From Tubulanus polymorphus (Eukaryota > Animalia > Nemertea): a stretch of 64,000 nucleotides of DNA. The stretch's first letter is position 1, and the number at the start of each line of letters is the position of its first letter. The DNA lies in the NCBI RefSeq assembly GCF_964204645.1, contig NC_134029.1:14936950-15000949 (forward strand). Direction: 5' to 3'. A program made the translations under genes and the position numbers. Below the pieces are notes generated by a model. The model was not told where the DNA came from. It saw only the letters and a list, made by a program, of their open reading frames with translations, and made no database searches. Below are positions 9,625 to 59,499 of this stretch, in pieces.

Positions 9625-10010
9625 TGCACTTCTGAATCCTTGACAATTGTTCGGGAAAATAGCTTTTCTCAAACCGGATAGGTGACCTTGATATGCAAAT
9701 TAGCCATGTGCACGAATTGCAAATTCAATAAAATTTCATTCCAAAAAAAAGTCAAATCCATGTCAATTTGACTTTATTGAGCAAAAAATTCAAATTCATC
9801 GAATTCCATTTTCTTTCATTCCACATTCAAATGTACTCACTAGACGATCGGTAAAGATTTATCTGAGGTATTCGTTCGTGCCAGCCGCAGTGTCTCTGTC
9901 AGTACTGTTACTTGAAAAACACAGCCAGTCTAAACAAACACACTGTTATTCAAACCCTACTGGAGTAGAAGAACCGACCACATGTTTGAAGTCTTCTAGT
10001 TTCTAGCTTT

Positions 10011-14304: not shown

Positions 14305-14649
14305 AAAAATGTGTACTGAAACACGGTTTAGTACCAAAAATAACTTACGCAATATTATACGTCCAATACAATAACATTAAGTCCAACGCGCAGGGATCCA
14401 TCGCAAAACATAGTTCACAAGATATAGTTTACACATCTGTGAAATCCATTTTTGAAGCACAAGGTAGAGCATCTGGTGTTGGCCCTGCCATCCATATACC
14501 TACTCACATGTCGGGACTTGCGGTCTATATACAAATGATGGTCTATATACAAGTGGTAGCTGATGTTGTATGATGATTCCAGTAGCACTGAAAAAGTAAA
14601 AATAAAAGGCCGGCAGAAAAAGTTCAGAACCAGGACTGAGGCAGGGATG

Positions 14650-14770
14650 AGTAATTAGAAGATGGCGTTTTCATACCAGAGGACGAGAGGACGAGACACC
14701 ACTCATCACCACAAGTAATTTTTTTCCTAACACTCATCACCACAAGTAATTTTTTTTCCTAATAAATGGG
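14650..14770 (+). repeat. Left terminal inverted repeat
   Basis: Exact reverse complement of 31098-31218; contains GAGGACGA x2 and CACTCATCACCACAAGTAAT(n)CCTAA x2, and ends in TAAATGGG. Confidence 0.97.
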
Positions 14771-15836
14771 GGAGAATGAACACCAACTAGAAAACAATAA
14801 TATCAATAAAAATCAATATTATTGTCAATATTGTAAAAAATACATCGATACATCTAATAAAACACGACATGAAAAAACTGCAAATCATATAAAAAATGTA
14901 ATAGATTTTGAAACTCCAGAAAATTCCAATGAAAGAAAAGAACGATTAGAAAATATGAATGTGAATGAAATAAAATGTGAAGTTTGTGATGAATTTATAA
15001 CAAAAAGGAATTATAATAGACATCTCGAAACAGAAAAACACCATCAAAATTTGAGAAATAATGTTTTAGGAATAGATTATTTTGATGATAAACCTCAACA
15101 AGTAAAAGAATCAACTTCAAAAACTAAATCCATTTCAAATAAACCTTACATGGAAAATGTTAGAAATTATATTGATTCACTAGAAATAAAAGATACAATT
15201 GAAATCTTAGAAACATTACATAGTAAAATTGGTCCTGCAGCTATTATATTTAGATTTTTTAAAGGTACAACAATAGAAGATTATAGTAAATTTAATGAAA
15301 TAATAGAAAAAATACTAGATTTGATAACAGATGTTGAATATCCAAAAATTAGTATCTCTGGGAAAGTAAGTTTTATAAAGTCAGAAGAAAAATGGATTAT
15401 AATATTCAAACACACTCTGAAGAAATAATTTCAAAAACACAAATAAAAGAGAAGTTAGAAAAAATATTAAATGAATTTAAACGTCATATTGAAGAAAGAT
15501 ATTTTGAGGGTTCTGGCTTAACATTGAATGAAATTATATATTTAGATTTAAATGTTTATAATACAAAAAGGAATAAAACATCAAAAAGTAATAAAATGTT
15601 TAAAAATGATTCAAACTTTACAACAGAAAAAGGATATGAAAGCATCAAGTTATATCAAATTACCGTTTACAACAAAAGCAGTAATAAATATTCAAAATGA
15701 AGATAATAAATGTTTTCTATGGTCAATTATTAGTTGTTTACACCAAACAGAAGATATGACGCATAGTTTTACAATAACAAATTACCGGAAATATGAAACA
15801 TTATATAAAATTGATCAATATCCAGTAACTATATAA
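14766..15836 (+). pseudogene. N-terminal part of pPolB (two C2H2/U1-type zinc fingers, terminal-protein region, start of vOTU-like domain), broken by two frameshifts and a stop
   Basis: Fragments 14766-15428, 15392-15700 and 15552-15836 join into the usual Polinton PolB N-terminus (GSGLTLNEIIYLDLNVY...SSYIKLP...KAVINIQNEDNKCFLWS); indels lie in A-runs at ~15390 and ~15630; TAA at 15834 is in frame with 15837. Confidence 0.8.
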
Positions 15837-18800
15837 ATGATTCCTAAAATAGAAAAAATTAATAATTTAAAAATAAATGTATTCGAATTAATGCAATTAC
15901 CAAAGACAAAAGGTGAAAATATTAAAGATTATACATTGGAAGCTTTATATTTAACAGAATATTATGATGATGAAAATGCTATAGATTTGTTATATTACAA
16001 AAAAGATGAAAATGAACATTATATGTGGTTAAAACAAATTGATTTATTCTTTAGAACAGAAAGTGATTTTAACAGCCATAAAATTTATCTATGTAGAAAA
16101 TGTTTATCTAAATTTAGAACTGAGAATACATTATTAAAACATAAAGAATTATGTGATAATAAAGATTTTTGTAAATTAATAATGCCAACAGAAAAAGATT
16201 ATAAATTGAAATTTACTAATCATAAATTTAAGAATATTGTTCCATTTGTAATTTATGGGGATTTTGAATCGTTGAATAAAGAATTAACCGATCAAGATAG
16301 AAAAGAAATATATAACAAAAAGCAATTATTAAAATCAATGGATAAAGGAAATGAATTAAATGAAGATATAATTCAAGATCCACCAATTATAAATACAATT
16401 AAAAAAGTTCATCAAAGAGCTGCTGCTTATGGAATTTACATCAAATCAAATTATCCCGAATTATATGAAAGTCAATATATTTCTTTTAGAGGTGAAAATG
16501 TAGTTAATGATTTTTGTGATAAAATGATTGAATTAGAAAGTGATTTTACAAAATTATTAAACAAAAATAAAAGAATAGTTATGACAAAAGAAGATGAAAT
16601 TGATTTTAATTATGCAACTCATTGTTGTTATTGTGAAAAACGTTTTTATTCATTTGATAAAAAAGTTAGAGATCATGATCATTTAAATTCAAAATATCGT
16701 GGAGCTGCTCATGAAGATTGCAATTTACAAGCTAAAAAAGTAAATTTCGTACCAATATTATTTCATAATTTATCAGGATATGATACCCATCTATTTATAA
16801 AACAATTATCAGGAAAATTGGGCGCAATTAATCAAGAAATAGAAGAATATAATGCTATGAATGAAGCAAATGTAAGAAAATATGATTTTAAACTATTAGC
16901 TAAAACATCTGAAAATTATATTTCATTTCAATTTGGTTGCATTAGATTTTTTTCAGATTCTTATAGATTTCTAGCAAGTTCATTAGATAATTTATCAAAA
17001 AGTTTAGTTGATAATGATTTTGTTATAACTCGATATTATTATCCAAATGAACAAGATTTTAAATTATTGAGATATAAAGGCGCAATTCCTTATTCATTTT
17101 ATAAAACACATAATGATTTTAATGTAACAGAATTATTAAAAGATCAATTTTATGATCAATTAAAAGAGGAGTATGTGAAAGACGAAGTGTTTAATAGAAC
17201 ATTAAATATTTGGAACCATTTTAAGATGAAAAATCATGGCGAATTAGTTGATTTATATTTAAAATCAGATGTTATGATATTGGCTGACATATTTGAAAAA
17301 TTTAGAGAAGTTAATTTGAATCATTTTAATGTTGATCCTTGTTATTGTTATTCAAGTCCTGGTTTAACCTGGCAATGTGGTTTAAAATATACAAATGTAG
17401 AATTAGATTTATTAAAAGAACCAGATATGGTTTTATTATTTGAAAAATCAATTAGAGGTGGAATAAGTGGTGTTATGGGAGATAGGTATTTTAAAGCAAA
17501 TGATGAATATAAATTATTATATATTGACGCCAATAATTTATATGGTTGGGCAATGATGCAACCTCAACCATATAAAAATTTTATATTAACAGAAGTTGAA
17601 AATGGTGATAAAACTGATTGGGAAAGCGCAATTATTAGTTTAAAAGATGAAGCACCAATTGGTTATTTCTTTGTAGTTGATTTAGAATATCCTGAAAATA
17701 TAAAGTTTAAAACAAGAAACTTACCTTATTGCCCAGAACATTTAACTGTAGATGATAGTTATTTAAGTGAATACCAGAAGAAAATAAAACCGAAAGATCA
17801 TGTTTTTACAGAAAAATTAATACTTACTCAAAATAATAAATACAATTATATTGTTCATTATAGAATGTTAAAATTTTATCTAAAACAAGGAATGAAATTA
17901 AAGAAAGTACATAGATATATTGAATTTAATCAATCGAAGTGGTTAGAAAAATATATAGATTTCAATACTCAACAGAGAACCATATCAAAAACAGATTTTG
18001 AAAAAGATTTCTTTAAATTAATGAATAATAGTTTTTATGGTAAAACATGTGAAAATATTAGAAATAGAAATGATATTGAATTAGTGAATAATTCTGAAAG
18101 ATTAAGACATTTACAATCAAGTCCTAGACATTTAGGAAATAAAAGATTTGAAGATTATTTAACAGCAGTAAAATTAAAAAGAACGTCCATGAAATTTAAT
18201 AAACCAATATTTATAGGTTCAACCGTTTTAGAAATTTCAAAGCTATTGATGTATAATTTTTATTACAATGTTTTACAACCATTGTTTGGGGAAAAACATA
18301 TAGAAATTCTGTACTTCGATTCTGTAACGGCCGACACCCCAATATTATTAAAATGTAATAATAAAATATTGGTAAGAAGAATTTCAGAAATAATTCCAAA
18401 ACAAAATGAATGTTATATTTCATATGGTGAAAAAGAACTAATACAAATAAATGGATTAATGGATGTTTGGACAAGAAATGGATGGAAAAAATTAAAGAAT
18501 ATTATTAGGCATAAAACAAATAAGAAAATCTATAGAGTTAGAACTAAATTAGGATTCGTAGATGTTACTGAAGACCATAGTTTAATTAAACGAAATGGTG
18601 ATGAAATAAAACCAACTGATATAAAAATTGGAGATGAATTATTACATAAAAGATTTTTCCAAAGAATGAATCATATGTCATTTGATGAAATAATTGATAA
18701 TATTTATAATATAGAACCCGAAACATTAGAAGAAAAAGAATATTTTATCAAAGGATTTTTCATGGGTGATGGTTCAGCAGGTGTGTATAAATATGTTTGG

Positions 18801-19841
18801 GGTAATAAATATTGTTGGTATTTATGCAATCAAGACTTGAAATTATTAGAAAGAATTAAGAAATTCTGTGAAGAAGTTTATTCACATAAAACATTTAGAA
18901 TCATGGATGTTATGAAATCATCAGCAGTTTATAGAATACTTGTAAATAATCCTAAAGATTTTGCTATAGAATATAATGATGAATTCTATATTCATGCAAT
19001 AGTGAAAAGTAATACTTCAACTAAAGAAAAAATAGTACCAGATTATATATTAAATTCAGAATATAATCTTAGAAAATGGTTCTTCATTGGGTTCTACGCA
19101 GCCGATGGTACTAAAAAATTTATAAAGGATAAAACGATAACCTTTGCACAGAAAGGAAAATGTGCAATAAGTGGGTTAAATGTGTTATGCAGTTCATTAG
19201 GATTTAATATGAATATAGAATTAATTAAATCTAAACCAAATTGTTTTAATTTAAGGCATGTAGAAAAAGAATTAACAGAAGAAGTTAAAGATTTATTTGA
19301 AATATATAACCCAACTGACTATGTTTATGATTTATCAACAGATGATGGAAAATTCAATTCTGGGTTCCCATTAATCAAAAAAAATACGGATGCGTACATA
19401 CTAAAAATCAAGACAAATGACATAACAAAAGACTTAAAAACATTAAAACATCATTTTGATTTTAGCAATTATCCTAAAGATCATGAATTATTTAGCAATG
19501 ATAATAAAAAGATTCCTGGTAAATTTAAAGATGAATTAGGAGGTGATGAAATGATTGAATTTGTTGGGATAAGAAGTAAAATGTATAGTTACAGAACAAA
19601 AGATCATGAAGCTAAAAAGTTAAAAGGAATAACAAAACATGTGGTTGATAAACATATAGAATTTCAAGATTATATAAAGTGTTTATATAAATCAATTGTA
19701 ATGAAACACAAGATGAATTGTTTAAGATCAGAAGATCATGAGATGTATATTAATGAAGTTGAAAAAACTAGTTTAAATCCATTTGATGATAAAAGGCATA
19801 TTTCAGATGATGGTATAAAAACGTTACCTTATGGTTATTAA
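15837..19841 (+). CDS. polB: Protein-primed family B DNA polymerase (pPolB) with an EndoVII/HNH-like insert and an intein
   Basis: ExoI YGDFES, ExoII FHNLSGYD, ExoIII YLKSDV; CxxC...VRDHDH...YRGAAH..CN; motif A YIDANNLYGWAM, motif B KLMNNSFYGK, motif C YFD|TDA split by the intein, KMYSY, KLKGI. Confidence 0.96.
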   Translation: MIPKIEKINNLKINVFELMQLPKTKGENIKDYTLEALYLTEYYDDENAIDLLYYKKDENEHYMWLKQIDLFFRTESDFNSHKIYLCRKCLSKFRTENTLLKHKELCDNKDFCKLIMPTEKDYKLKFTNHKFKNIVPFVIYGDFESLNKELTDQDRKEIYNKKQLLKSMDKGNELNEDIIQDPPIINTIKKVHQRAAAYGIYIKSNYPELYESQYISFRGENVVNDFCDKMIELESDFTKLLNKNKRIVMTKEDEIDFNYATHCCYCEKRFYSFDKKVRDHDHLNSKYRGAAHEDCNLQAKKVNFVPILFHNLSGYDTHLFIKQLSGKLGAINQEIEEYNAMNEANVRKYDFKLLAKTSENYISFQFGCIRFFSDSYRFLASSLDNLSKSLVDNDFVITRYYYPNEQDFKLLRYKGAIPYSFYKTHNDFNVTELLKDQFYDQLKEEYVKDEVFNRTLNIWNHFKMKNHGELVDLYLKSDVMILADIFEKFREVNLNHFNVDPCYCYSSPGLTWQCGLKYTNVELDLLKEPDMVLLFEKSIRGGISGVMGDRYFKANDEYKLLYIDANNLYGWAMMQPQPYKNFILTEVENGDKTDWESAIISLKDEAPIGYFFVVDLEYPENIKFKTRNLPYCPEHLTVDDSYLSEYQKKIKPKDHVFTEKLILTQNNKYNYIVHYRMLKFYLKQGMKLKKVHRYIEFNQSKWLEKYIDFNTQQRTISKTDFEKDFFKLMNNSFYGKTCENIRNRNDIELVNNSERLRHLQSSPRHLGNKRFEDYLTAVKLKRTSMKFNKPIFIGSTVLEISKLLMYNFYYNVLQPLFGEKHIEILYFDSVTADTPILLKCNNKILVRRISEIIPKQNECYISYGEKELIQINGLMDVWTRNGWKKLKNIIRHKTNKKIYRVRTKLGFVDVTEDHSLIKRNGDEIKPTDIKIGDELLHKRFFQRMNHMSFDEIIDNIYNIEPETLEEKEYFIKGFFMGDGSAGVYKYVWGNKYCWYLCNQDLKLLERIKKFCEEVYSHKTFRIMDVMKSSAVYRILVNNPKDFAIEYNDEFYIHAIVKSNTSTKEKIVPDYILNSEYNLRKWFFIGFYAADGTKKFIKDKTITFAQKGKCAISGLNVLCSSLGFNMNIELIKSKPNCFNLRHVEKELTEEVKDLFEIYNPTDYVYDLSTDDGKFNSGFPLIKKNTDAYILKIKTNDITKDLKTLKHHFDFSNYPKDHELFSNDNKKIPGKFKDELGGDEMIEFVGIRSKMYSYRTKDHEAKKLKGITKHVVDKHIEFQDYIKCLYKSIVMKHKMNCLRSEDHEMYINEVEKTSLNPFDDKRHISDDGIKTLPYGY
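18321..19385 (+). mobile_element. Intein (355 aa) with LAGLIDADG homing endonuclease, inserted in PolB motif C
   Basis: Block A SVTADTPILL, block B VDVTEDHSL, dodecapeptides YFIKGFFMGDGS and WFFIGFYAADGT, block F YVYDLST, C-terminal KKN followed by +1 Thr; removal restores YFDTD. Confidence 0.93.
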
Positions 19842-20608
19842 AATGGATCTATATCATCAAACTCGAAATCACTATTGGCTTCTTCATTTTCATTTAATTG
19901 TTCAGGTTCTTCTTCCATTCCATTTTTCTCATTTAAATAAAGTTCTATCTTGTTCCACATTTCATCTCGCTCTCTTTGTTTCTTTTTGTTTGTTAATTCA
20001 TCAAATGGAATTATAATATCTAGGTTTAAATAATTTACAATCTTATTTAAAAAGAATTCATAATTTATTGAATCTGTTATTCTATTTTCCAAATGATACA
20101 TTAATATTTGTTTAAATATTTTTTTTATATTTTCCATATCTTCTTCTGTTAATTTAGGTTTTTCATAATAATCGTTAAATAATAAATATAAATACATTTT
20201 CTTTTGTTTTGTGTTAAATGTTGGTGGAATAATTGTTTTTATAATATCTTTTTTAGTTATTTCACCATTTTTATTTTCTATTATTTTCATTTTTTCAAGC
20301 CATTGCATATATTCTGGTGTATGATCTTCCATGGAAAATATTTTAAAAATTTCATCAAGATAATTTAATTTTGGTTCTATGAGAAAATTTCTAGTTTTTT
20401 CTTCACCCCATAAATTCTTTTGCCATCCACATTCAACACAAAATAACACAGTACCTTCTTGCCTTAAGGTCGCATAACTACATTGTGGGCATTTTTGTTT
20501 ATAATTTCTTGGTAATAGATCTTCATTAAGCTCTTGGTATTTTCTTACGTTTTCTTTATGTTTTATTGTTCTATTATGTAGATTTGAATTACTTGTTGTA
20601 ATAATCAA
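19838..20608 (-). CDS. Poxvirus late transcription factor VLTF-3 (A2)-like protein
   Basis: N-terminal Zn ribbon CPQC-x13-CVEC, then RNFLIEPKLNYLDEIF and KLTEEDMENIKKIFKQIL...SINYEFFLNKI...QRERDEMWNKI, collinear with remembered VLTF-3 motifs (INYSFFLDKI; C-terminal W); ORF starts at TTG. Confidence 0.75.
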   Translation of the reverse strand: MIITTSNSNLHNRTIKHKENVRKYQELNEDLLPRNYKQKCPQCSYATLRQEGTVLFCVECGWQKNLWGEEKTRNFLIEPKLNYLDEIFKIFSMEDHTPEYMQWLEKMKIIENKNGEITKKDIIKTIIPPTFNTKQKKMYLYLLFNDYYEKPKLTEEDMENIKKIFKQILMYHLENRITDSINYEFFLNKIVNYLNLDIIIPFDELTNKKKQRERDEMWNKIELYLNEKNGMEEEPEQLNENEEANSDFEFDDIDPF

Positions 20609-20623
20609 TTTACAATATTTATA

Positions 20624-21136
20624 TTAATATGTTTTTCTTGTTAATTCATTATATTGTTTTTCTAACTTTTCAACTGTTTCTTTATTATCTGGTAACGTTT
20701 TCTCATATTTTATTTTTTCTAATAAATTATTTTTTCTTTCATTGAATTCAGTTTCAAATTTATTAGAAATTTTATCTATATGTGCTTTACGAAATTGATG
20801 ATTCTCCCAATCTTCTATATTTTCAGGGCTATATTTTACTTGACAAGGCTCACAGAAATGATCTTTTATATTATCCTTATCATAGAATAAGAAAGGTCTT
20901 TTCCAAATAACTTCAGGTTCAACTTCAGCAGAATTACTATCAACATTAGCCGTTGCGCTATTAATTCTACACTTCTCTGAATGTTTTTTAACATAATTTC
21001 TTGAGAATAATTTATTACAATTTGGACAGTTTATTTTAGGGGGTTTATAATTTTCATCATGTTTTTTCATATGTCGAGCCATATTACTTTTTCTTAGAAG
21101 TTCACCACAAATTTCGCATGCTATCTTCTCATCCAT
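20624..21136 (-). CDS. Zinc-finger protein (three C2H2/C2HC-type fingers)
   Basis: CEIC-x12-HMKKH, CPNC-x12-HSEKC, CEPC...HQFRKAH; TAAATG start. Confidence 0.8.
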   Translation of the reverse strand: MDEKIACEICGELLRKSNMARHMKKHDENYKPPKINCPNCNKLFSRNYVKKHSEKCRINSATANVDSNSAEVEPEVIWKRPFLFYDKDNIKDHFCEPCQVKYSPENIEDWENHQFRKAHIDKISNKFETEFNERKNNLLEKIKYEKTLPDNKETVEKLEKQYNELTRKTY

Positions 21137-21204
21137 TTATTAAGGAAAAATTTTATTAAAATTAATTTTTAGTGATGAGCGGTAATTTTTTTATGTTATA
21201 AATA

Positions 21205-21963
21205 ATGGTAGAATTAAAAGAATACAGAATATTTATTGATTCTAGAAAACTTACAAATTATAAATCTCATAATTTACTAGTACAATTAGATAGAGAATTC
21301 AAGAATTGTGTAGATTTAAAATTAGTTAATATAAGTTTATGTAATTCTTTTTATAATATATCGGATAAAAGTCTAGAACATTTAATTTTTTCAATCTTTT
21401 ACAAAAAAAGGAATAAATGGTTTTTTATATATTTAAAACCAGGATTATATAATTTAGATACATTAACACAAGAAATTAATAGAAAAGCTCGAGCTAAATT
21501 AGGAAGTGATTCCGGATTTAGTATTAGAATTTTAAAAAGTGCTAGTTCTAATAAAATAAAGATTAGGTTAGCTAATGACGAACAATTTAAATTTACAGTA
21601 AGAAAACCTTTAGCTAAACTGTTAGGAATTGTACCAGATACCGTTACAGCATACGCAGAAGGTAAATCAAACTTAATACCTTTTACACATTTTTATATTT
21701 ATTGCAATTTAATTGACCCAACAAAAACATTTGAAGCAACTAAAGATACAATTTGTAATTCTGGTTTATTAAATATTTTACCATTAAAAAATGTTAAAGA
21801 ATTTGGAACGCAAATAAATTATAATTTAACTGAATGTGATTTCAAACCTTGTATTCCACATTTCAATAATTTTAAATTAGAAATAAGAAATCATAATGGT
21901 TATTTAATTGATTTGAATAACTTTCCTGTGATATATGAATTAGTTATAAGATGTAAAGAGTAA
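21205..21963 (+). CDS. Minor capsid (penton, single jelly-roll) protein
   Basis: Polinton penton pattern: IFIDS...V.LDRE...NSFYNI...PGLYN...YIYCNLID...LEIRNHNGYLIDLNNFPVIYEL. Confidence 0.75.
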   Translation: MVELKEYRIFIDSRKLTNYKSHNLLVQLDREFKNCVDLKLVNISLCNSFYNISDKSLEHLIFSIFYKKRNKWFFIYLKPGLYNLDTLTQEINRKARAKLGSDSGFSIRILKSASSNKIKIRLANDEQFKFTVRKPLAKLLGIVPDTVTAYAEGKSNLIPFTHFYIYCNLIDPTKTFEATKDTICNSGLLNILPLKNVKEFGTQINYNLTECDFKPCIPHFNNFKLEIRNHNGYLIDLNNFPVIYELVIRCKE

Positions 21964-21979
21964 TTTTTCACCTTTATAA

Positions 21980-22336
21980 ATGAATATAACTGTCGGACCG
22001 AGTATATGTTTTGGATTTGATTTTAAACGTGAGAAAGAAATGAAATTTAATATGAATGATGTAATAACACATATCAAAAATATTGCATTTTCTAATGAAA
22101 CAACATTTGAGTATGAAACAACAATTGATAAAGAAACTTTAAATGTAGAAAAGATTACTAATTTAATTAGAGAATCTTTAAGATTTTATGAATTAGATGA
22201 AGATTTTATCATCGATGATATTAAAAACATATTATCCAAAATATATGATAATCATAAAACTAGTAATAAAATAAATGTTGAAATAATCATAAATAAGTTA
22301 ACTAAATATTTTGATGATAGTAATTTTTTTGATTAA
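21980..22336 (+). CDS. Hypothetical Polinton protein (118 aa)
   Basis: Intact ORF with T-tract/TAAATG start in a tightly packed gene run. Confidence 0.65.
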   Translation: MNITVGPSICFGFDFKREKEMKFNMNDVITHIKNIAFSNETTFEYETTIDKETLNVEKITNLIRESLRFYELDEDFIIDDIKNILSKIYDNHKTSNKINVEIIINKLTKYFDDSNFFD

Positions 22337-22339
22337 TAA

Positions 22340-22561
22340 ATGAGTGATAATAAATGGATAATAACTGGATTATATAATGGCGCATTACTATCAGTTGGAA
22401 CGGTTGGTTATTCAATGGTATTAGAAAAAGTATTCAAAATGGGAAGTGTTAATGTTGATAGATTTGATATCAATGATATTTTGAAATTAACGTTAGCAGT
22501 TACTTTATCTAATTTAACTATTGATTATTTGGAAAAACAAAAATATATTCCTCCCATATAA
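22340..22561 (+). CDS. Small hydrophobic/membrane protein (73 aa)
   Basis: Two hydrophobic segments; TAAATG start. Confidence 0.7.
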   Translation: MSDNKWIITGLYNGALLSVGTVGYSMVLEKVFKMGSVNVDRFDINDILKLTLAVTLSNLTIDYLEKQKYIPPI

Positions 22562-22585
22562 ATGCATAATTTTTTTGTTAAATAA

Positions 22586-23008
22586 ATGGCTTCTGCAATT
22601 ATAACTATTATAGGATCGGCAATTGTTAACGCTTTAGCATTTACAGGTGGCGGTTATTTATTTAAACATATTGATAAAAATAGTTCATTAGGAGAACAAA
22701 GAAGACATAACTTAGCGTTAGAGAAATATAATAAAGCTGCAGAAGAATATAGAGAAAAACGACAAAACTATATGGATTATATTAACAAAGAATTATATAA
22801 TCAGAAGATTTCACATAGAGATTTTCAATCAGTTGATGATGCAATGAGTTTATATAACGCGGTAACCAATAAAGAAAAATTACATCTATACAAACCTAAA
22901 TTATCAGATTATTATACCCCAAGTAAAGAACAACAGAAATATGAAATAATTTGGATTTTAGGTGGATCAGTTATTGTTATATTTGTTGCTTATAAATTTA
23001 CTAATTAG
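22586..23008 (+). CDS. Membrane protein with N- and C-terminal hydrophobic segments and a central coiled coil (140 aa)
   Basis: MASAIITIIGSAIVNALAFTGGGYLF ... IIWILGGSVIVIFVAY; TAAATG start. Confidence 0.75.
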   Translation: MASAIITIIGSAIVNALAFTGGGYLFKHIDKNSSLGEQRRHNLALEKYNKAAEEYREKRQNYMDYINKELYNQKISHRDFQSVDDAMSLYNAVTNKEKLHLYKPKLSDYYTPSKEQQKYEIIWILGGSVIVIFVAYKFTN

Positions 23009-23027
23009 TAATTTTTATTCTAAATAA

Positions 23028-23462
23028 ATGGAAGATAAAGTTGATAGTATTGATATTATTCCTCATGATATAAATAAAACTAAATTAAAAACATATTTAG
23101 AAAAACAAATATTAGAATTTGAAAGTGACTTAAAGATAAAAAAGAAAAAATATTTAAAAAGTAAAATTATATATTATTTGATTATAAGTGGTTCGGTTAC
23201 AATTAGTTCTGTAATAACATTTCTAGCAATATTCAGTCCATTAACACCTTTAGCTATATCAATTGGTGTATTAGGATTAAGTTCAAGTGTTTTAACTGGT
23301 ATAAGTTCAAAATTAAATATAAAAAGTAATAAAGAAAAAATTAAAACTAATATAAAAGAAATTAATAAATTAAAGAATACACTAGATTATATAATAAGTT
23401 TAAATGGTCATATAACAGTTGAAGAACAAGATAAATTATTAAAAGAATTAATAAATTATTAA
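23028..23462 (+). CDS. Two-TM membrane protein (144 aa)
   Basis: Hydrophobic hairpin IIYYLIISGSVTISSVITFLAIF / LAISIGVLGLSSSVLTGI flanked by Lys-rich helices. Confidence 0.7.
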   Translation: MEDKVDSIDIIPHDINKTKLKTYLEKQILEFESDLKIKKKKYLKSKIIYYLIISGSVTISSVITFLAIFSPLTPLAISIGVLGLSSSVLTGISSKLNIKSNKEKIKTNIKEINKLKNTLDYIISLNGHITVEEQDKLLKELINY

Positions 23463-23479
23463 TTTTTTTAATTATATAA

Positions 23480-24868
23480 ATGGTAGATAGTTTTCCAAAA
23501 GCTTTCCAATATAATAAATCAATTAAATATAATATTCCAACAATAGATTTTAATAAAGATATTACATATAGAAATGAAGTTTTAGATTCATTAACTAATT
23601 TAGAAATTCATGTTACTGAAACTAATAATTTTAATGCAAAGATGGAAAATATATTTCATGTATATTTGATTAATTTTAAAAAATTGAAAGATGAAAAACA
23701 ATGGTTATTAAAATCTAATATGAAGTATTGGCAGAATCAATTAAATTTTGCTGTTTATTGTGCAACAACAGGTTGTGGAATTAGTTGGAATGATCATTAG
23801 AATAATTCTAAATATAAATTAATTCAAAGTTTATTTAGATTTCATACATACTTTCAAATCAGAATAATATTAAATGAATTAGAGTGCGCTTTACCAGGAT
23901 CTAGGTATTTCAAAGAATTGGATAATAATATTAATTTATCAAAGTTTTATAAAATTTGTAATGAATTTAATATAGATATAAAAAGTTCTGATTTTAGAAC
24001 AAAAATTGGAACAATAAGATCACTTCCTTGCCCTAGAAAGATTGCAGAATATTGTGCACTTCCCATACCATCTAATAGTTTTTATAATATCTATAATAAT
24101 AAATTAGGTTATGGTAAAATAGAAACAAAAGATTTAGAAACATTAAATTTCAATAAATTACCAAAATTTTATGATCATTTAAAACAAGAAAACAATAATG
24201 GTTGGGTATATTTTATTTTAGAGAATAGTGAAGGTTTTACTAAATCAGGTATAGAAAGAATAAATCAATCTATTAGAACTTATTTAATTTGTATTCTAGG
24301 ATCACAAGTTGAAACAAGATCACCGATAATTGGAAATTTGAATACATCATTTGATACACAAAAACAATTTAAAGTTTTATTTGAAGATTCAATTCATAAT
24401 GATAAAAATAGATCGATTCCAGAAAACATTATAAGATATCAAAATTATTTAGATAAATCTCATGTAAGACTTAATTATTGTATAGGCCCTAATCTATTAA
24501 TTATTTCTAATGATTTAGTATTAAAGATGGGAAATATAATTGGTTATAATAATCTAATTAAAACTGCAACAATAAATAATTCATTTGGATTAAATGATAT
24601 AAATAAAAAGATTATTACTGCTCCAAAATTAATGGAAGGTGAAAAAAATAAAAAACATATTCAATCAACTGAAACTAAAACTAAGAATATTAAATTAAAT
24701 AATGATTCTAAAATAAAAGATTACAATACATCAGAAGATATAAAAACTGATAAAATTCAACATGATATAATTAAACTAAATGATGATAATAAATCCCATG
24801 AAAATACTAAATTAGCTATAACTTGTATAGGAATTGTAATCGGAGGAATATTATATTTTAAATTCTAA
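23480..24868 (+). pseudogene. Single ~462-codon gene with a C-terminal TM anchor, interrupted by one in-frame TAG (23798-23800)
   Basis: ORFs 23480-23800 and 23918-24868 share a frame and the sequence between them is open (NNSKYKLIQSLFRFHTYFQIRIILNELECALPG); only 23480 has a TAAATG start. Confidence 0.75.
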
Positions 24869-24885
24869 TTTTTTTTATTATGTAA

Positions 24886-26325
24886 ATGGATGTAGAAGGT
24901 GGAGAAGATTATGAAATGGAAGGCATGGGAAATAATAATGAAGGATATATTGATGATGAACCACAACCCGATTTTAATGAAACTAATATTGATAATGATG
25001 ATGAATCAGCATATAATTCTAATTTAACTACACCTCAATATATTGATAAAACACGTTCAAAGATAAGTATTGAAAATGAAGTACCAGAAATAACAGAAAA
25101 AGAATACAATTATAATGAAATTATTCATGAATTTAAACCAATATTAAAAAGATCTGGTTTCAATATAACAAATAAAGGTATGAATTATTTAGTAAAAGAT
25201 TTAAAATATTTAAATGGTGATTATAATTGGAAATTGAAAGGCGACTATTATTTTAAGATTTCAAATCTTAAAAGTAACGATAAAATAATAACACAATCAA
25301 CTTTTAATTTATTTAAACCAGATAGAATTAAGAAAATCATTGATGATGTTATAACTGATGTTACACAAGAAGAAAGAGATTATAATATAAAAGAATTTAA
25401 ACAAAGAAATGCTAAATTTTTTGAGATAATTAATGAAAATTTAAGACAAAAAAAAATTCCTAAAGAAGTTATTAATTCCAAAACTAGTAAACCTAATTCA
25501 AGCGAAGTTCAAACTGAAAAACTTTTACCAAATGGATTACTTGATGCAACAGATCAACAATTAGAAGATTTAAATATATTTTCTGATGAAGCAATTAGAG
25601 AAATTATTAGTATAAGAAATGAAGCTGATAAAATTGTACATAATAAAAGTATAAGAGATCAAAAAATTAGAACTTTAGAAAAAGAATTAACTGATAAATA
25701 TAAAGAAATAGAACAATTAAAGTCTGATTTAGATCATCAAGCAATTGATGAAATAGAATATAGGCAAAAAGAATTACGTTTAGAAAAAGAAAAAGATTAT
25801 TTAGAATATAACATAGAATTACAAAAAGAAGAAATTAAATCATTATTAAAATCATATGAATATAATATTGATAGATTAAAAGTTATTTTTAAAGATTTGT
25901 TGATTAAACCAAATTCTGAAATATCATTAAAAGACAGAATAAAGTTATTATTTAAATTAGAAGGAATAACAATTCTTTCAATTCTAACAGCTGTAACTAT
26001 GTTATTTACAACAATTGGTTTAGCAATATCAAATGCTTTGAAATCTACTCCTACTCCAAATAAACCAGATAAACCTCCAGGCAATAATTCTATACAAGAT
26101 AAAGTTAAAGATGGTTTAAAAAAATTAGCAAAATATTTATGGGAACTATCAAAGAAATCTGCTGCAGCATTGCCAGGAGTTATTGCTTCAATTGTTGGTT
26201 TTATATTGAAATCTGCTGGGAATATTCTTAACTTTGCTGCTGAACATATTATTTTATTTTTAATTACAGTTGTAAGTGCTATTATTTTTGGGTTAGTGAA
26301 TATGATATCAAAAAATATCAAGTAA
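24886..26325 (+). CDS. Coiled-coil protein with acidic N-terminus and C-terminal multi-pass hydrophobic region (479 aa)
   Basis: Long heptad-like region, then ITILSILTAVTMLFTTIGLAI, Pro-rich linker, ALPGVIASIVGFIL and IILFLITVVSAIIFGLV. Confidence 0.8.
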   Translation: MDVEGGEDYEMEGMGNNNEGYIDDEPQPDFNETNIDNDDESAYNSNLTTPQYIDKTRSKISIENEVPEITEKEYNYNEIIHEFKPILKRSGFNITNKGMNYLVKDLKYLNGDYNWKLKGDYYFKISNLKSNDKIITQSTFNLFKPDRIKKIIDDVITDVTQEERDYNIKEFKQRNAKFFEIINENLRQKKIPKEVINSKTSKPNSSEVQTEKLLPNGLLDATDQQLEDLNIFSDEAIREIISIRNEADKIVHNKSIRDQKIRTLEKELTDKYKEIEQLKSDLDHQAIDEIEYRQKELRLEKEKDYLEYNIELQKEEIKSLLKSYEYNIDRLKVIFKDLLIKPNSEISLKDRIKLLFKLEGITILSILTAVTMLFTTIGLAISNALKSTPTPNKPDKPPGNNSIQDKVKDGLKKLAKYLWELSKKSAAALPGVIASIVGFILKSAGNILNFAAEHIILFLITVVSAIIFGLVNMISKNIK

Positions 26326-26376
26326 ACCATGATATCAAAAAATATCAAGTAAACCATGATATCAAAAAATAAATAA
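26302..26376 (+). repeat. 27-bp tandem duplication (~2.6 copies) across a stop codon
   Basis: ATGATATCAAAAAATATCAAGTAAACC repeated. Confidence 0.9.
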
Positions 26377-26396
26377 TTAATTTTTTTGTTAAATAA

Positions 26397-27644
26397 ATGA
26401 GTGGGAGTTATATAAGTCCTTCGAAGAATCATAGAATATCTAATGCTATTAAAGCAGAAAGATCACATCATATAATTACTCATAACCCTTCAAATATTAA
26501 TCCCGATGAAACTTTATACGTTAGAATCCCTCGATTAACACAAAATACTTTTTATGTTCCAAATAGTATTTATTTATCAGCCGATATAAAAGTAACTGGC
26601 CATGATAACAATTATGTTGTTGATAATGTTGGAAGATATTTGATTAAAAAATTAACTATAAAGATTGGTCCGGAAACAGTTTTCTCATTAGATGATTATA
26701 ATTTATTTATGCATTATAAAGATTTATGGTTAACTAAAGAAAATAGAAATAATATGATATTTCAAGGCATCCAATCGGAAAACCATAATAAATTAAGATC
26801 TGAAGCCAATAATGCAGTAGTAACTCGTGCCACAGATAATTTGATTAAAAAGATTTATGGAAGCAAATATAAAATTCCATTAGACTTTGAATTGATAAAT
26901 AATAATGCACCTTTATATAAATACGCAATTCAAGAAGATATTATATTTGAGATAACATTTGCTCCTGTAAATGAAATTGTATTATCTAGCGTTGTTAAAG
27001 ATATGGGTTATAAATTATCGAATATATGTTTAGAATATAACACAGTAACTAATGAAAATATTGCTAGCACAATTCAAACTCAATACAATCAAGGATTTTC
27101 ATTATTATATGATTATATTGATAAATTTAAAACTGTAACTATTAATGCAAATGATGAAATAATTAATGAGAATATTAACTTTCCTAGAAGATCTATTAAA
27201 GGTATATTAATATTTTTTACTATTGCAACATACTCTAATGGTGCAATAAATGTTGATAATTATTATAATCCTGAAATAACAAAAGTAGAAATAACTATCG
27301 AAGGAATAGCGAATAAAATATTTTGTCAAGGAATGAGAATGATTGATCAATGGCCAGAAATTAGAAAACATTTTATGAATGAAAAAGTAAAATCATCTGA
27401 AAATTGTAATATTAATCAAATTGATTATTATACCGGTAATAAATATGCATTATGGTTAGATTTTAGAACAACAGAGGATAATTTATTACATGGTTCTGGA
27501 AAAAAACTACAGAACACTAAAGATGGAATACAATTATTCATGAAAAAGAATAAAGGAATCAAAAATTTTAAAATGCACATTTATATTATATCTGACGCAC
27601 AATTAAATATTGTAAATTCACAATTAGATAGTATTCAATATTAG
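26397..27644 (+). CDS. Major capsid protein (double jelly-roll), 415 aa
   Basis: Size, beta-rich pattern, position next to integrase, motifs ITHNPS.I.P...LYVRIP.L and YALWLDFRTTEDNLLHGSG typical of invertebrate Polinton MCPs. Confidence 0.75.
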   Translation: MSGSYISPSKNHRISNAIKAERSHHIITHNPSNINPDETLYVRIPRLTQNTFYVPNSIYLSADIKVTGHDNNYVVDNVGRYLIKKLTIKIGPETVFSLDDYNLFMHYKDLWLTKENRNNMIFQGIQSENHNKLRSEANNAVVTRATDNLIKKIYGSKYKIPLDFELINNNAPLYKYAIQEDIIFEITFAPVNEIVLSSVVKDMGYKLSNICLEYNTVTNENIASTIQTQYNQGFSLLYDYIDKFKTVTINANDEIINENINFPRRSIKGILIFFTIATYSNGAINVDNYYNPEITKVEITIEGIANKIFCQGMRMIDQWPEIRKHFMNEKVKSSENCNINQIDYYTGNKYALWLDFRTTEDNLLHGSGKKLQNTKDGIQLFMKKNKGIKNFKMHIYIISDAQLNIVNSQLDSIQY

Positions 27645-27674
27645 AAATATAAAGTTAAAATTAAGGATATATAA

Positions 27675-28802
27675 ATGAGTGGTAAAAAAACTCCTAATAC
27701 TAAAGAACAATATTTAAGAAATTTATATTACAACCCTGAGAGTTCGGTTGCTTATTCTTCTACTAAAAATATATGGCGTAAAGTAAAACAAGATAAATTA
27801 GATAAGATAATCCCACAAAATTTAGTTAAATATAAAGATATAAATGAATTTATGTTAGAACAACCAACATATACAACACATAAAAAAATTGTTAGAAAAT
27901 ATAAAACTCGTAAAACTATGGTAAGTTATGTAGATCAACAGTGGCAAGGAGATTTAATTGATATGAAAAATGTTAAGAAAGATAATGATGATTATTGGTG
28001 GTTATTGAATATAATTGATATTTTTAGTCGTTATGTATGGAGCTTCCCACTTTATAGAAAAGATGCTGCACAAACATCACATGTTTTAAGAAAATTTCTT
28101 TCAGGTGGTAAACTAAAACCAGAAAAAATTCAATTTGATGATGGAAAAGAATTTGATAATTCATTAGTTCATGGACTTTTAGATTTTCATAATATTAAAT
28201 ATTTTTCGACAAAATCGGATAAAAAAGCAGCAGTTGTTGAACGATTTAATAGAACATTGAGAACAAGAATGTCAAAATATTTCACAGCAAATAATACTTA
28301 TAAATGGATTGATGTTTTACCAAAATTGATAGAAGGATATAATAATTCTTATCATTCTTCTATTGGAATGAAACCTATTGATGCTAGAAAACCTGAAAAT
28401 GCTGAAATTGTTTGGAATAATTTATATGGAGCATTTCTTGTTGATGATTTTGGTGAACCTAAATTTAAAGTTGGTCAAAATGTTAGAATTTCTAAGTATA
28501 AAAAGATATTTGACAAAGGATACGATCGAAATTTTACTAGAGAAATATACAAAATAAAAAAGGTAATAACAACAAAACCATATGTCTATAAATTAGAAGA
28601 TTTAGATGGTGAAGAAGTTGATGGCTACTTTTACGAAGAAGAATTAAGTTTAACTACTGAAAATCTAGAACAAGAATATAAAATTGAAAAAGTACTAAAA
28701 ACAAAAACTGTTAAAAGAAAAAAATATTCTTTAGTAAAATGGGTTGGATGGCCAGATAAATTCAATGAATGGATATTATCAAGTAAAATTAAAAATATAT
28801 AA
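27675..28802 (+). CDS. int: Retroviral-like (rve) DDE integrase with C-terminal chromodomain
   Basis: WQGDLIDM, IDIFSRY, QFDDGKEF, VVERFNRTLR; C-terminal YKIEKVL...LVKWVGWPDKFNEWI. Confidence 0.95.
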   Translation: MSGKKTPNTKEQYLRNLYYNPESSVAYSSTKNIWRKVKQDKLDKIIPQNLVKYKDINEFMLEQPTYTTHKKIVRKYKTRKTMVSYVDQQWQGDLIDMKNVKKDNDDYWWLLNIIDIFSRYVWSFPLYRKDAAQTSHVLRKFLSGGKLKPEKIQFDDGKEFDNSLVHGLLDFHNIKYFSTKSDKKAAVVERFNRTLRTRMSKYFTANNTYKWIDVLPKLIEGYNNSYHSSIGMKPIDARKPENAEIVWNNLYGAFLVDDFGEPKFKVGQNVRISKYKKIFDKGYDRNFTREIYKIKKVITTKPYVYKLEDLDGEEVDGYFYEEELSLTTENLEQEYKIEKVLKTKTVKRKKYSLVKWVGWPDKFNEWILSSKIKNI

Positions 28803-29411
28803 ATGAATAAGGAATTATTTATATTTGAGCCCCATAATATGTTAATTTCTGGTGTAACAAATTGTGGAAAAACTTATTTTATATTAAATTTATTAGAAAC
28901 TGTTTATGAAAACTATTTTGATAATATAGTATTATTTTGTCCAACATATGAATTTAATCAAACTTATGATAGAAATATTACTAGAAATAATAAATTTATT
29001 ATATTAGATCCTAAAACAGTAAAAGAAAATTTAGATAATTGTATAAAAATAGCAATTGATATTTATAAAGGATCTAATACATTATTTATTATTGATGATT
29101 GCGCAAATTTACATGATTCTAAAATTAGAGAAAGTGAGTTATGCTATTTAGCTTTCTCTGGGAGACATTTTGGGATAACAACTTGGGTTTTAAATCAAAA
29201 ATATAATTCAATTGTTAAAGACTTTAGAGAAAACATTAGATTTCTAGTTTTATTCTACAATAAAGATAGAAAATCGATGAAAAATGCACTTGAGGAAAAT
29301 GATATTATTCCACATGATTTACATAATGAATATATGGATAAGTTGAAAAATATTAAAAGATCAAAATTACTATTTAGATTACAACACCCATTTAAATATG
29401 AATTTATTTAA
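28803..29411 (+). CDS. A32/FtsK-like DNA packaging ATPase
   Basis: Walker A GVTNCGKT, Walker B LFIIDD, GRH...LNQ motif. Confidence 0.92.
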   Translation: MNKELFIFEPHNMLISGVTNCGKTYFILNLLETVYENYFDNIVLFCPTYEFNQTYDRNITRNNKFIILDPKTVKENLDNCIKIAIDIYKGSNTLFIIDDCANLHDSKIRESELCYLAFSGRHFGITTWVLNQKYNSIVKDFRENIRFLVLFYNKDRKSMKNALEENDIIPHDLHNEYMDKLKNIKRSKLLFRLQHPFKYEFI

Positions 29412-29690
29412 ATTCAACTAGCTTGTTAATCTAATTGAATTCTAGTTGAATTCTAGTTATTGGTAGTTGTAACAAAAATCAACTAGATTTAACAATATTT
29501 TAACTAGCTTGTCAATCTAGTCTAATTCTAGTTACATTCTAATTGAATTCTAGTTGTTAGTAGTTGAAACAAAAATCAACTAGATTTAACAAGAAATAAA
29601 CAAAAAACAACAATATTTCAACTAGCTTGTTAATCAATTTGAATTCTAGTTACATTCTAGTTACATTCTAGTTAAATTCTAGTTGCAACA
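29412..29690. repeat. Intergenic array of short direct and inverted CTAG-core repeats (AACTAG / TTCTAGTT)
   Basis: More than a dozen CTAG cores as caactag and ttctagtt in ~280 bp. Confidence 0.8.
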
Positions 29691-29718
29691 TCACACAATT
29701 AATTTTTTTGTTATATAA

Positions 29719-30324
29719 ATGGGAGGTGAAAAGAAAATAAAATCTAAAAATGGTGATGTTCCAATTGAAAAAACTTTAGATGATTTAGGAATAACAGAAA
29801 CAAAATTAACTCCAGATGATGGTGCTTTAAATATTGTTACAACAAATAATAATTATGAATATTATCTTTATTGTAAACATCAATTAGAAATATTAATAGC
29901 ATCTGGAAAATGTAAAAATTTTGTCGGTAAAAATTTAACTTATAATGAATTAGATACAATGAAATCAGTTGAAATTATTAGATTATTTAAGATTTATGAA
30001 GCCGCGAGAACAGCTAAAATCAATGACGCGATATCAGAAAATGTAGTAAAAGGTTATAGTAAATTATGTAATTATATACTACCAATTGAAGATGAAAATA
30101 GATTATATTCCGATTTAAAAAATGATTATTTAGTTATGACTGAATTAAATAAGTGGATTGGATATTTATCATTTCAATTAGGTGGATTTATGACATTATT
30201 ATCAACCGGGGTTATAACATTTTCAAATATTGAAAGTAAAAATATTTCTATAATAAATGAGCGAAGTGAAAGAAGTGAAGGAATTAACTGTGAAGAAAAA
30301 ACCGAGAACTCAGAAACAAATTAA
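29719..30324 (+). CDS. Conserved hypothetical Polinton protein (201 aa)
   Basis: TAAATG start; decayed homolog at 33406-33940; hydrophobic C-terminal segment. Confidence 0.8.
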   Translation: MGGEKKIKSKNGDVPIEKTLDDLGITETKLTPDDGALNIVTTNNNYEYYLYCKHQLEILIASGKCKNFVGKNLTYNELDTMKSVEIIRLFKIYEAARTAKINDAISENVVKGYSKLCNYILPIEDENRLYSDLKNDYLVMTELNKWIGYLSFQLGGFMTLLSTGVITFSNIESKNISIINERSERSEGINCEEKTENSETN

Positions 30325-30625
30325 ATGGTCTCGACAATTAGGAATTAAATCACAAGAATATAAAAAAGCTGTAAAAGAAAAAATAAGTAATAAAAATGTT
30401 AATAAAAATGGTGAAAATATTGTTATTTCTACTCCTTCTGATAGTAGAATATTTGATAAATATCTATATTTTACAGTTGGATTTGTAATTGTATTCATTT
30501 TGGTTGGGTGTAATTGGTATAAGAAATCAAATAAAATTCATGATAGTAATAATTCTGAAACAACTGCTATCAAAAATGAAAATACTTCTGAAATTCCAAA
30601 ATTGATAATAAAAAAAATGGATTAA
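30257..30625 (+). CDS. Basic single-TM protein (122 aa)
   Basis: KKPRTQKQIKWSRQLG, TM YLYFTVGFVIVFILVGC; decayed homolog near 33925-34260. Confidence 0.75.
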   Translation: MSEVKEVKELTVKKKPRTQKQIKWSRQLGIKSQEYKKAVKEKISNKNVNKNGENIVISTPSDSRIFDKYLYFTVGFVIVFILVGCNWYKKSNKIHDSNNSETTAIKNENTSEIPKLIIKKMD

Positions 30626-30669
30626 TATTTTAGAAAAAAGCAAAAAAATAATTTTTTTTAATTAATTGA

Positions 30670-30742
30670 ATATCTCACTACTTTTGTCTATCTATGTGGA
30701 GCAATTAAATTGTCCAGATAAGTCATTTCGGATTCTAGATAT
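30670..30742 (+). other. Conserved, putatively structured non-coding element of the Polinton
   Basis: Reverse-complement homolog at 33080-33154 in the second Polinton; nested stems retained. Confidence 0.65.
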
Positions 30743-30775
30743 TCATTATTTCTATTAATTTATTTTTTTAAAAAT

Positions 30776-31102
30776 TTAATTAACAATTTCTAAATCATGA
30801 TGACCGTCTTCATTTTTCCCATGATATATTATTTTAAATCCTACTAAATCTTTCAATTCCTCCGTACTCAATGAAACCCATTTATCGGGTAAAAACACTT
30901 TAAATTCTCGCGATGTACTAACATTACAGTAGCTTAAATTAGCTGATACTTTCTCTCCATATTTAGTTTTTATCTTTTCTAATTTCAATATTTTATGTTC
31001 AATTTCTTTTGTAACATCAACTAACTTTTTTATTTCAAATTGTTTTTTTGCTGGTTTTATTCTGTTATTTATTGTTGCTAAGAATGCTTTTCTATCTCCC
31101 AT
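30776..31102 (-). CDS. Small basic beta-rich protein (108 aa; TKYG...VFLP), possibly nucleic-acid binding
   Basis: ATG lies inside the right TIR behind the TAAATG motif; function is a guess. Confidence 0.65.
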   Translation of the reverse strand: MGDRKAFLATINNRIKPAKKQFEIKKLVDVTKEIEHKILKLEKIKTKYGEKVSANLSYCNVSTSREFKVFLPDKWVSLSTEELKDLVGFKIIYHGKNEDGHHDLEIVN

Positions 31103-31218
31103 TTATTAGGAAAAAAAATTACTTGTGGTGATGAGTGTTAGGAAAAAAATTACTTGTGGTGATGAGTGGTGTCTCGTCCTCTCGTCCTCTGGTATGAAAA
31201 CGCCATCTTCTAATTACT
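31098..31218 (-). repeat. Right terminal inverted repeat
   Basis: Exact reverse complement of 14650-14770, followed by TSD GGGATG. Confidence 0.97.
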
Positions 31219-31224
31219 GGGATG

Positions 31225-35412: not shown

Positions 35413-35414
35413 TT

Positions 35415-35640
35415 CCGCACTTAAGACTTCAGCAATTGGCCAACATCTGTCAAATTGCCGTGACTGTCAGGTCTCGTTTAGCGAAAAGAATTTCAAAATT
35501 TTAGATAAAGGTTCCTCTGATTTAGATTGCAAAATAGGAGAAGCACTTTTTATCAAAACTCAACAGCCCTCCCTAAATCAACAACTATTGGAACACCGGT
35601 CAGGATTTATTCTCAATGTTTTTAGATAATTAACTACTAG
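35415..35640 (+). mobile_element. 3' fragment of a Penelope-like element (GIY-YIG C-terminus) truncating the second Polinton
   Basis: KTSAIGQHL..C..C...FKILDKGSSDLDCKI.EALFIK.Q.PSLNQQL, nearly the same as the end of ORF 56468-56959. Confidence 0.85.
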
Positions 35641-58893: not shown

Positions 58894-59499
58894 ACTACTG
58901 GTCACTGACATCAAAGTTTTAGTTTCTGTTCACATGTTTCCGCTTATAAATATCCAATTTGTATGTTCTATCTTTTAATACAGGCCATGTGATTAATTGC
59001 GTATCGCTCCATAAGTTTAAAAAGAGAGCACATATTTCGATATTGTTAAATGATTAACTACATTTTTTTCTGTCACACGTTGATTTTTACCCATCACTTA
59101 TAAAATTCAAATGTACGTGATGTATTCTGTAAGCTATGTAAGCTTGTTCTTAAAAATACACTATGAATTTTCAATTTGTACTGAACATAATAGTTTATTT
59201 TTCGTAAATAAAATTTATATTTTAATTAAATAATTTCAAAATCTTTTCTATGCCCTCTGCAACAGAAACTTACTAAGGACTATTACATATTCAGATGTAC
59301 GTTGATAATTGATTTCAATCGTCCCTTCAAATAATTATATGAACATTATTTCGGAAAATGCAGGTGGCGCACAATCATAATACATACAACTCATCAAGCT
59401 GACGAGTCGTTTCCGTAACCAATATTACAGACGGGTAACCATTCTACTCGACTCCACAGACAACTAAACGACCCGAGTAACCCCCAATTTGACTATAAC

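Follow-up and report, generated by a model that had tools for sequence, protein, structure and literature searches.

Known systems

The poxvirus late transcription factor VLTF-3 (A2 in vaccinia) is reportedly needed for transcription from late promoters. It is a protein of about 225 residues (PF04947 + PF08792) in which a four-cysteine (C4) zinc ribbon is directly followed by a helical core. Here we describe a homologue of this factor in a Polinton (Maverick) of the nemertean Tubulanus polymorphus, located in a stretch of 64,000 nucleotides of contig NC_134029.1 (positions 14,936,950 to 15,000,949, forward strand), which is hereafter called the window. The window protein shares the succession of ribbon and core but is 432 residues long, with four N-terminal zinc fingers and an acidic tail, and it evolves fast; unlike the poxvirus setting, its element has no detected RNA polymerase, VLTF-1 or VLTF-2. 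We give a probability of about one half to the reading that this is a virophage-like Polinton whose genes are read by the polymerase of a co-infecting poxvirus-type helper, its own VLTF-3 steering that polymerase.

VLTF-3 genes in Polinton-type elements are already known. According to the available portions of the sources concerned, stony coral polintoviruses carry VLTF3, with citation of earlier work (PMC11131425), the gene is named in the figure legend of a MELD virus (PMC8502044), and it occurs in about 30% of the polinton-like virus (PLV) clusters VC123/VC126 (10.64898/2026.06.19.733378). On the other side, the available text of PMC11253617 says that no VLTF3 homologues are known outside Nucleocytoviricota, and VLTF is not mentioned in the main text of PMC5499653. 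An earlier reading of this DNA, made from the letters alone (the sequence-only reading), had presented the gene as foreign to the canonical Polinton set; given these publications, that novelty was overstated. The published elements resemble the window element in carrying a VLTF3 homologue as an accessory gene and are compared here by description; the portions available give no donor lineage, zinc-finger fusion or promoter analysis. What is new at this locus is the zinc-finger fusion, the apparent pox-type affinity and the element-wide late-type promoters.

Two further systems come close. Mavirus of Cafeteria is, like the window element, an integrating element with a protein-primed DNA polymerase B (pPolB) and a retroviral-type (rve) integrase, and its promoters match the late motif of a large virus, its helper CroV (Cafeteria roenbergensis virus; available text of 10.1101/068312). 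It differs in its motif and likely in its helper; it is modelled as using the late factor of that helper whereas the window element carries its own, and helper dependence has been shown for mavirus while we infer it here. Maverick-related elements have also been found in entomopoxvirus occlusion bodies (PMC11296320, available portions). These PLVs are likewise tied to poxviruses and one is integrated in a beetle genome, but they encode a cysteine protease and their PolB-type members are without integrase; VLTF, transcription and promoters are not mentioned in the main text of that paper. A transfer of KilA from an egovirus to a Polinton has been reported (10.1101/2024.03.23.586382, available portions). 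Among the full-text matches listed, from a search outside which most subscription journals lie, none describes a Polinton with promoters of the poxvirus late type.

A VLTF-3 homologue fused to zinc fingers

The gene and its parts are as follows.

19838..21136, minus strand: whole VLTF-3-like gene, 432 codons plus stop, with fingers, ribbon, cyclin-like domain and acidic tail
20627..21136, minus strand: N-terminal part, three zinc fingers of C2H2/C2HC/U1 type plus a helical linker; the zf-C2H2 match in Pfam (E=1.5e-4) does not reach the curated threshold
20624..20626, minus strand: in-frame stop (TAA) where the fourth finger, of U1 type, begins; the residues that directly follow match zf-U1 at E=0.0018
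20429..20491, minus strand: C4 zinc ribbon, C-x2-C-x13-C-x2-C, cysteines invariant in 13/13 alignment rows, strands in the model
19925..20380, minus strand: predicted helical VLTF-3 core of cyclin-box-like fold (hhalign, pox-only profile, structure model and structure comparison)
19841..19918, minus strand: acidic C-terminal tail, variable in the family

The ribbon, the segments quoted by the sequence-only reading, the late tryptophan and the acidic tail are all found in the minus-strand frame ending at 19838. That reading covered the 3' 60% of the gene; it did not reach the true extent to 21136, and neither the N-terminal fingers nor the interruption of the window copy was recognised. The acidic tail, present in the window protein, is not common to the whole family: P0003 has none, and in the relatives P0002 and P0007 it is much longer.

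The stop-to-stop frame 19838-20623 has its first ATG at 20332. Upstream of the TAA, the same frame runs on into a 170-codon zinc-finger ORF (open reading frame) starting at 21136. Because uninterrupted relatives (P0002, P0006, P0007 and P0003, with 46, 46, 46 and 32% identity) align over both parts, fingers and VLTF-3 core are, judged by these alignments, a single 432-codon gene that is broken in the window copy. A separate gene beginning after the stop was considered and ruled out, since no ATG lies ahead of the ribbon and the relatives are continuous. The finger cysteines and histidines are kept in relatives. The full protein cannot be made from the window copy without read-through; the stop is absent among the 40 of 1161 read-versus-window differences listed.

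In order to evaluate the homology, several sequence comparisons were performed. A phmmer search of 1.84 billion representatives returned four matches, namely P0002 and P0003 (full-length family), P0004 (unplaced) and P0005 (E=5e-5). The last is a Pox_VLTF3 (1e-24) and A2L ribbon protein, 60-63% identical to named entomopoxvirus VLTF-3 and 27% identical to the window protein in a pairwise alignment of 199 columns. In the multiple alignment, core identity to pox VLTF-3 is 21-24%, and the ribbon cysteines as well as Tyr and Trp positions are invariant between the family and entomopoxvirus VLTF-3. A hidden Markov model (HMM) built from nine poxvirus-type VLTF-3 only gave the window core 32.2 bits, against -9.6 for the reversed sequence and a top score of 3.7 for 300 shuffles (298 reported). 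The hhalign probability for the VLTF-3 match was 95.9, and a language-model atlas search returned Pox_VLTF3 clusters in 27/30 matches. The check originally proposed, hmmscan against Pfam Pox_VLTF3, failed as such: the direct scan of the window protein gave no Pox_VLTF3 or A2L ribbon match at E<=0.1, and it also misses P0002-P0004. The homology itself was borne out by phmmer, the pox-only HMM, hhalign, the atlas and Foldseek, and by these comparisons the gene is a real VLTF-3 homologue whose nearest named sequences are entomopoxvirus VLTF-3. A word-index homologue search (0/284 candidates), PDB sequence searches in which the window piece or an entomopoxvirus VLTF-3 was the query, and a search of a phage collection gave no match; no loci were recovered when viral contigs were scanned with the core, the capsid, the ATPase, or the alignments of the family and of the capsid. 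P0004/P0008, a VLTF3-like protein of 281 aa, has no Pfam match and is not fused to zinc fingers.

The single-sequence fold was unusable (pLDDT 40), and a structure model was built from a 13-row alignment including pox rows (pLDDT 82). With this model, Foldseek placed cowpox VLTF-3 at rank 1 (E=1.6e-6, TM 0.64) and entomopoxvirus VLTF-3 at ranks 3 and 5, so that the anticipated match to a poxvirus A2-type structure was obtained with a model whose alignment held pox rows. Foldseek against the PDB gave a best E=0.23. When the model was compared to solved chains with VIA-align, cyclins, TFIIB and Rb occupied most of the top 30 rows, with best Z 7.1 for cyclin F and 7.0 for yeast TFIIB, over one cyclin box (root-mean-square deviation about 3.8 over 90-100 residues). 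TFIIB has two cyclin-box repeats. The proposed relation to TFIIB concerns one cyclin-like domain at Z 6-7, and with moderate support the core may be called TFIIB/cyclin-like. A tree was computed from the Polinton proteins and pox-type VLTF-3 (fetched set of nine proteins, all pox-type) with no non-pox outgroup; such a tree would not establish a pox donor.

A late-type promoter motif at gene starts

Fifteen gene starts of the element were picked from the ORF list before the upstream DNA was viewed, break fragments and one antisense shadow ORF being excluded. TAAATG was found at 14 of them, compared to 35 of 418 short-ORF starts taken as null (p=1e-13). The exception is the 252-aa gene at 21205, whose start reads TAAATAATG. 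A T-run is centred 10 nt upstream in 11/15 starts, and TAAATG combined with TTT at -14..-12 was observed for 11/15 genes versus 3/418 in the null set. The resulting consensus is TAA, T-run, variable spacer and TAAATG, about 22 nt overall. A pattern search of the whole window returned 10 sites, all at element gene starts, where 0.3 were expected, and an automated ORF caller without manual selection found the motif at 14/18 starts in the element (one at the polymerase break) and 11/12 in the related contig L002. The main sites are listed below.

21134..21155, minus strand: promoter-like site for VLTF-3, composed of A-richer core, T-run and TAAATG; L001 and L003 have a similar one
14747..14768, plus strand: T-run and TAAATG in the left terminal repeat, before the polymerase gene; mirrored at 31100-31121, minus strand
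26378..26399, plus strand: T-run and TAAATG before the major capsid gene
21183, 21961, 22321, 22567, 23009, 23460, 24866 and 29700: other T-run plus TAAATG sites
27656, 28784 and ahead of 30257: A-richer motif forms

In the available portions of PMC11980589 and PMC5294985, the vaccinia late consensus consists of TAAAT(G), which overlaps the start codon, and of a conserved T that lies among other Ts 10 nt upstream. The conserved-T position is T in 14/15 window starts and in 14/15 starts of relatives. The element promoter sequence can thus be described as poxvirus-late-type, matching the published vaccinia consensus.

The motif is kept in relatives. L001 and L002 are two contigs of a related element (50-89% identity to the window element in most proteins) and L003 holds a more distant VLTF-3 gene; TAAATG stands at 15/15 starts in these loci. 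Among 11 orthologous pairs, identity is 10-11/11 at -4..-1 and -14..-12 and 2-7/11 at -40..-25, showing that upstream conservation between orthologues peaks on the motif. Stop-start coupling as a cause of TAAATG was rejected, the stop codon of the upstream gene being part of 1/14 sites only. For the integrase, ATPase and 30257 genes the core is A-richer, a feature that recalls described intermediate promoters as a hint only. The poxvirus early terminator T5NT is slightly depleted in coding strands (11 observed, 17.7 expected) and was not used as evidence.

Outside this family, 68 viral loci picked for holding the motif had TAAATG at 68/663 ORF starts and both parts at 18/663. In L006, a single pPolB/rve element of 34% GC with no VLTF3 in the 13.6 of 19.6 kb examined, TAAATG was found at 2/8 starts. 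The motif points to a large-DNA-virus late programme, of which poxviruses would be the best but not the sole fit.

The host element and its copies

The Polinton spans 14650-31218 (16,569 bp), has a GC content of about 23% within repeat-rich surrounding DNA of 35-45%, and contains the VLTF-3-like gene together with the following features.

14650..14773, plus strand: left terminal inverted repeat, with target duplication GGGATG at 14644-14649
31095..31218, minus strand: right terminal inverted repeat (124 nt, 99% alike), with GGGATG at 31219-31224
14766..19841, plus strand: protein-primed DNA polymerase B with N-terminal U1-type fingers (Pfam DNA_pol_B_2 E=2.9e-18)
18321..19385, plus strand: 355-aa intein with LAGLIDADG-like domain, within the polymerase; missing from L001
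21205..21963, plus strand: 252-aa gene, putative minor capsid by size and position, with no clear family match
26397..27644, plus strand: putative double jelly-roll major capsid protein (Pfam Capsid_N E=0.02)
27675..28802, plus strand: retroviral-type integrase with chromodomain (Pfam rve E=5e-9, Chromo E=2e-4)
28803..29411, plus strand: A32-like packaging ATPase (Pfam Pox_A32 E=3e-13)

The terminal repeats, the 6-bp duplication (perfect at both borders), the size, PolB, rve integrase, A32 ATPase and putative capsid identify the element as a Polinton/Maverick, confirming where the gene had been said to lie. The major capsid assignment is weak; capsid clusters are among the atlas neighbours of the candidate, with a low recognition value. 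An adenain-type protease, usual but not universal in Polintons, had no Pfam match among the 19 element ORFs, several of which are unassigned.

Same-species reads covered the element in 30/30 bins; their identity was mostly 90-99%, and the left border showed mixed loose ends. On account of these reads, the element belongs to a multi-copy family with many insertion sites. The window copy has further breaks in the polymerase gene, which is split in several pieces here and uninterrupted in L001, and in the gene at 23480-24868. At one of these other breaks most reads differ from the window, which suggests that decay affects this copy.

Several features of the element and its relatives were noted in addition. 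The intein is positioned at the catalytic YFD-TD motif of the polymerase. Giant-virus polymerases have inteins at a like site; to our knowledge, inteins are rare in animal genomes. A 31-nt tandem duplication within the terminal repeat (14699-14773, 31095-31170) doubles the T-run promoter core, and one unit is missing from many reads. A membrane protein with two helices is encoded at 23028-23462, with a weak match (E=0.004) to SLATT, a domain noted in other polinton-like viruses, and the intergenic region 29412-29718, upstream of the 201-aa gene, holds many short (A/T)TTCTAGTT repeats. In L002, a deoxynucleoside kinase gene (9260-9901, Pfam dNK E=2e-31) that the window element is without adjoins VLTF-3 and has the same promoter motif. 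Polymerase and VLTF-3 genes form a tail-to-tail pair that stands at the opposite end of the structural block in L001/L002 compared with the window (14766-21136), as if relocated as a single module. A decayed sister Polinton fragment lies at 33180-35420, with homologues of the 201-aa gene, integrase and ATPase in a different order, and has kept TAAATG at 2/3 recognisable starts.

Proposed helper dependence and its alternatives

If the element is read by a poxvirus-type helper, TAAAT would overlap the start codon and serve as transcription initiator, as it does in late genes of vaccinia, and transcripts would therefore be without a templated 5' leader. Because the element encodes no RNA polymerase, that of the helper would be used: late in infection, all element genes would be transcribed by a co-infecting pox-like virus, in the way that CroV serves mavirus. 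Within the late initiation complex, ribbon and cyclin-like core would stand in for the VLTF-3 of the helper, and the extra fingers would hold the factor on element DNA, perhaps at the TAA-T-run box common to its promoters, so that the fused VLTF-3 would bias the helper polymerase toward the element. The redirection of a helper polymerase proposed by the sequence-only reading agrees with a late-type promoter at nearly every start, kept in relatives; its choice between activator and decoy is not separable by sequence. A bolder form, which we hold tentatively as a possible one, is that this multi-copy Polinton family of an animal genome is a poxvirus virophage with every gene wired to poxvirus late promoters, in which a captured poxvirus VLTF-3 has turned into a zinc-finger-guided specificity factor that pulls the helper polymerase onto the element's own genome. 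If true, the element would be passed on by inheritance, be triggered by infection and parasitise poxviruses, and it would hint at a poxvirus lineage not yet described in the host group.

At issue is whether Polintons of animals live as autonomous viruses of the nucleus or parasitise larger viruses. Here the promoter grammar and the captured late factor alike indicate a helper of poxvirus type, and the question thereby becomes testable. Helper-type late motifs at Polinton gene starts could predict helpers and offer a cheap screen. Moreover, a natural, diverged VLTF-3 fusion could help define the role of this hallmark factor, the PDB search having found no solved VLTF-3 structure.

Several observations weigh against a poxvirus-type helper steered by the element's own factor. 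In Foldseek, non-pox VLTF3 proteins, giant-virus ones among them, follow close behind (E=5e-5 at rank 6), and the ranking is not independent since the model alignment included entomopoxvirus rows; the cyclin-fold Z of 7 falls under the tool's caution line of 8. In the tree without non-pox outgroup, the Polinton proteins fall outside the pox rows on long branches. As for the promoters, two of the 15 starts share one repeat sequence, which brings the independent count to 13/14, and the comparison was made without a control set of VLTF3-lacking animal Polintons. Entomopoxvirus loci (L004 and L005) have TAAATG at 12/32 starts; because an upstream T-run accompanies it in 1/12 of these, the match in both parts is with the consensus published for vaccinia and not with the sampled entomopoxviruses. 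Contigs of giant-virus metagenome-assembled genomes use TAAATG as well (L068 6/10, L058 7/19, L056 3/8; rates of 37-60%), some with T-run, and certain lineages other than poxviruses may have a late initiator of the pox type. Between two elements, the VLTF-3 core has 50% identity and a rough ratio of nonsynonymous to synonymous substitution rates (dN/dS) of 0.81 (one pair, simple counting method, AT-biased). In the same pair, capsid, ATPase and polymerase have 76-83% identity and dN/dS 0.15-0.21; five of six other genes have 0.15-0.31, and the 479-aa gene 0.69. Finally, helper dependence is deduced from sequence, no helper virus or transcript having been seen. L048 is a further giant-virus contig of this type with frequent TAAATG starts.

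The fast change of VLTF-3 relative to other element genes would also fit an arms race or a lost activating role, as expected if the fused protein were a decoy or inhibitor that binds the helper polymerase or late factors and damps helper late genes, the element promoters being read by the helper's own factors. These promoters already match the late consensus, so that an own activator is not strictly needed, and the variable acidic tails could mimic DNA. Nevertheless, the four ribbon cysteines and helical-core residues are kept across the family and pox proteins, the conserved zinc fingers suggest nucleic-acid targeting, and a general inhibitor would harm an element whose every gene needs late transcription. 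With the same helper dependence, a decoy role is rather unlikely.

The identity of the helper can be questioned too. It might be a large DNA virus outside the poxviruses (Megaviricetes, asfa-like or ego-like) with a similar late initiator, the likeness to poxviruses coming from database sampling and AT bias. The giant-virus contigs with TAAATG starts favor this view, as do the atlas neighbours, for the most part clusters of Nucleocytoviricota and Preplasmiviricota that carry no pox label; the polymerase intein presumably recalls giant-virus polymerase inteins. In the available portions of PMC5294986, Exaiptasia VLTF3 is grouped near Asfarviridae. Conversely, the sole non-family VLTF-3 among the 1.84 billion representatives is entomopoxvirus-type, and the compact ribbon-core spacing fits pox proteins of 213-224 aa over their length (TMt 0.51-0.58), longer giant-virus proteins matching partially (TMt about 0.2-0.35). 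We regard a non-pox helper as unlikely.

An autonomous nuclear element, in which VLTF-3 would be a TFIIB-like, zinc-finger-targeted recruiter of host Pol II/Pol III and TAAATG a mere start-codon context, draws on the TFIIB and Brf-like chains among the fold matches and on the chromodomain integrase, which implies that the element visits the nucleus. It is improbable, since the motif is fixed against the ATG with no room for a 5' leader, its spacing equals the vaccinia late consensus, and no TBP homologue was seen by Pfam among the element ORFs. A start-codon-fixed promoter without 5' leader would accord better with initiation of the poxvirus type than with host Pol II. The core promoter of Pol II is normally situated about 25-30 nt upstream of the start site (PMC5294985, available portions). 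That the gene is a decaying passenger without present role and the motif an inherited relic, as its break in this copy and high rough dN/dS might suggest, is very improbable, because relatives at 46% and 32% identity have full-length open frames, kept cysteines and a kept promoter, and because other genes are broken too, an indication that the copy, not this gene in particular, is decaying.

Other features of the window

The 59 flank ORFs contain retroelement domains only, and tRNA and Rfam searches gave no matches. At 56468-58901 a reverse transcriptase adjoins a GIY-YIG ORF, a pair that we take, by its architecture, to be a Penelope-like retroelement. An inverted repeat pair of 351 nt lies at 6965-9588, and a dispersed repeat family is found at about 35700, 36900, 44300, 49000 and 59700. 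Tandem arrays with units of 59 nt and 31 nt occupy 39534-40113 and the region from about 40900.

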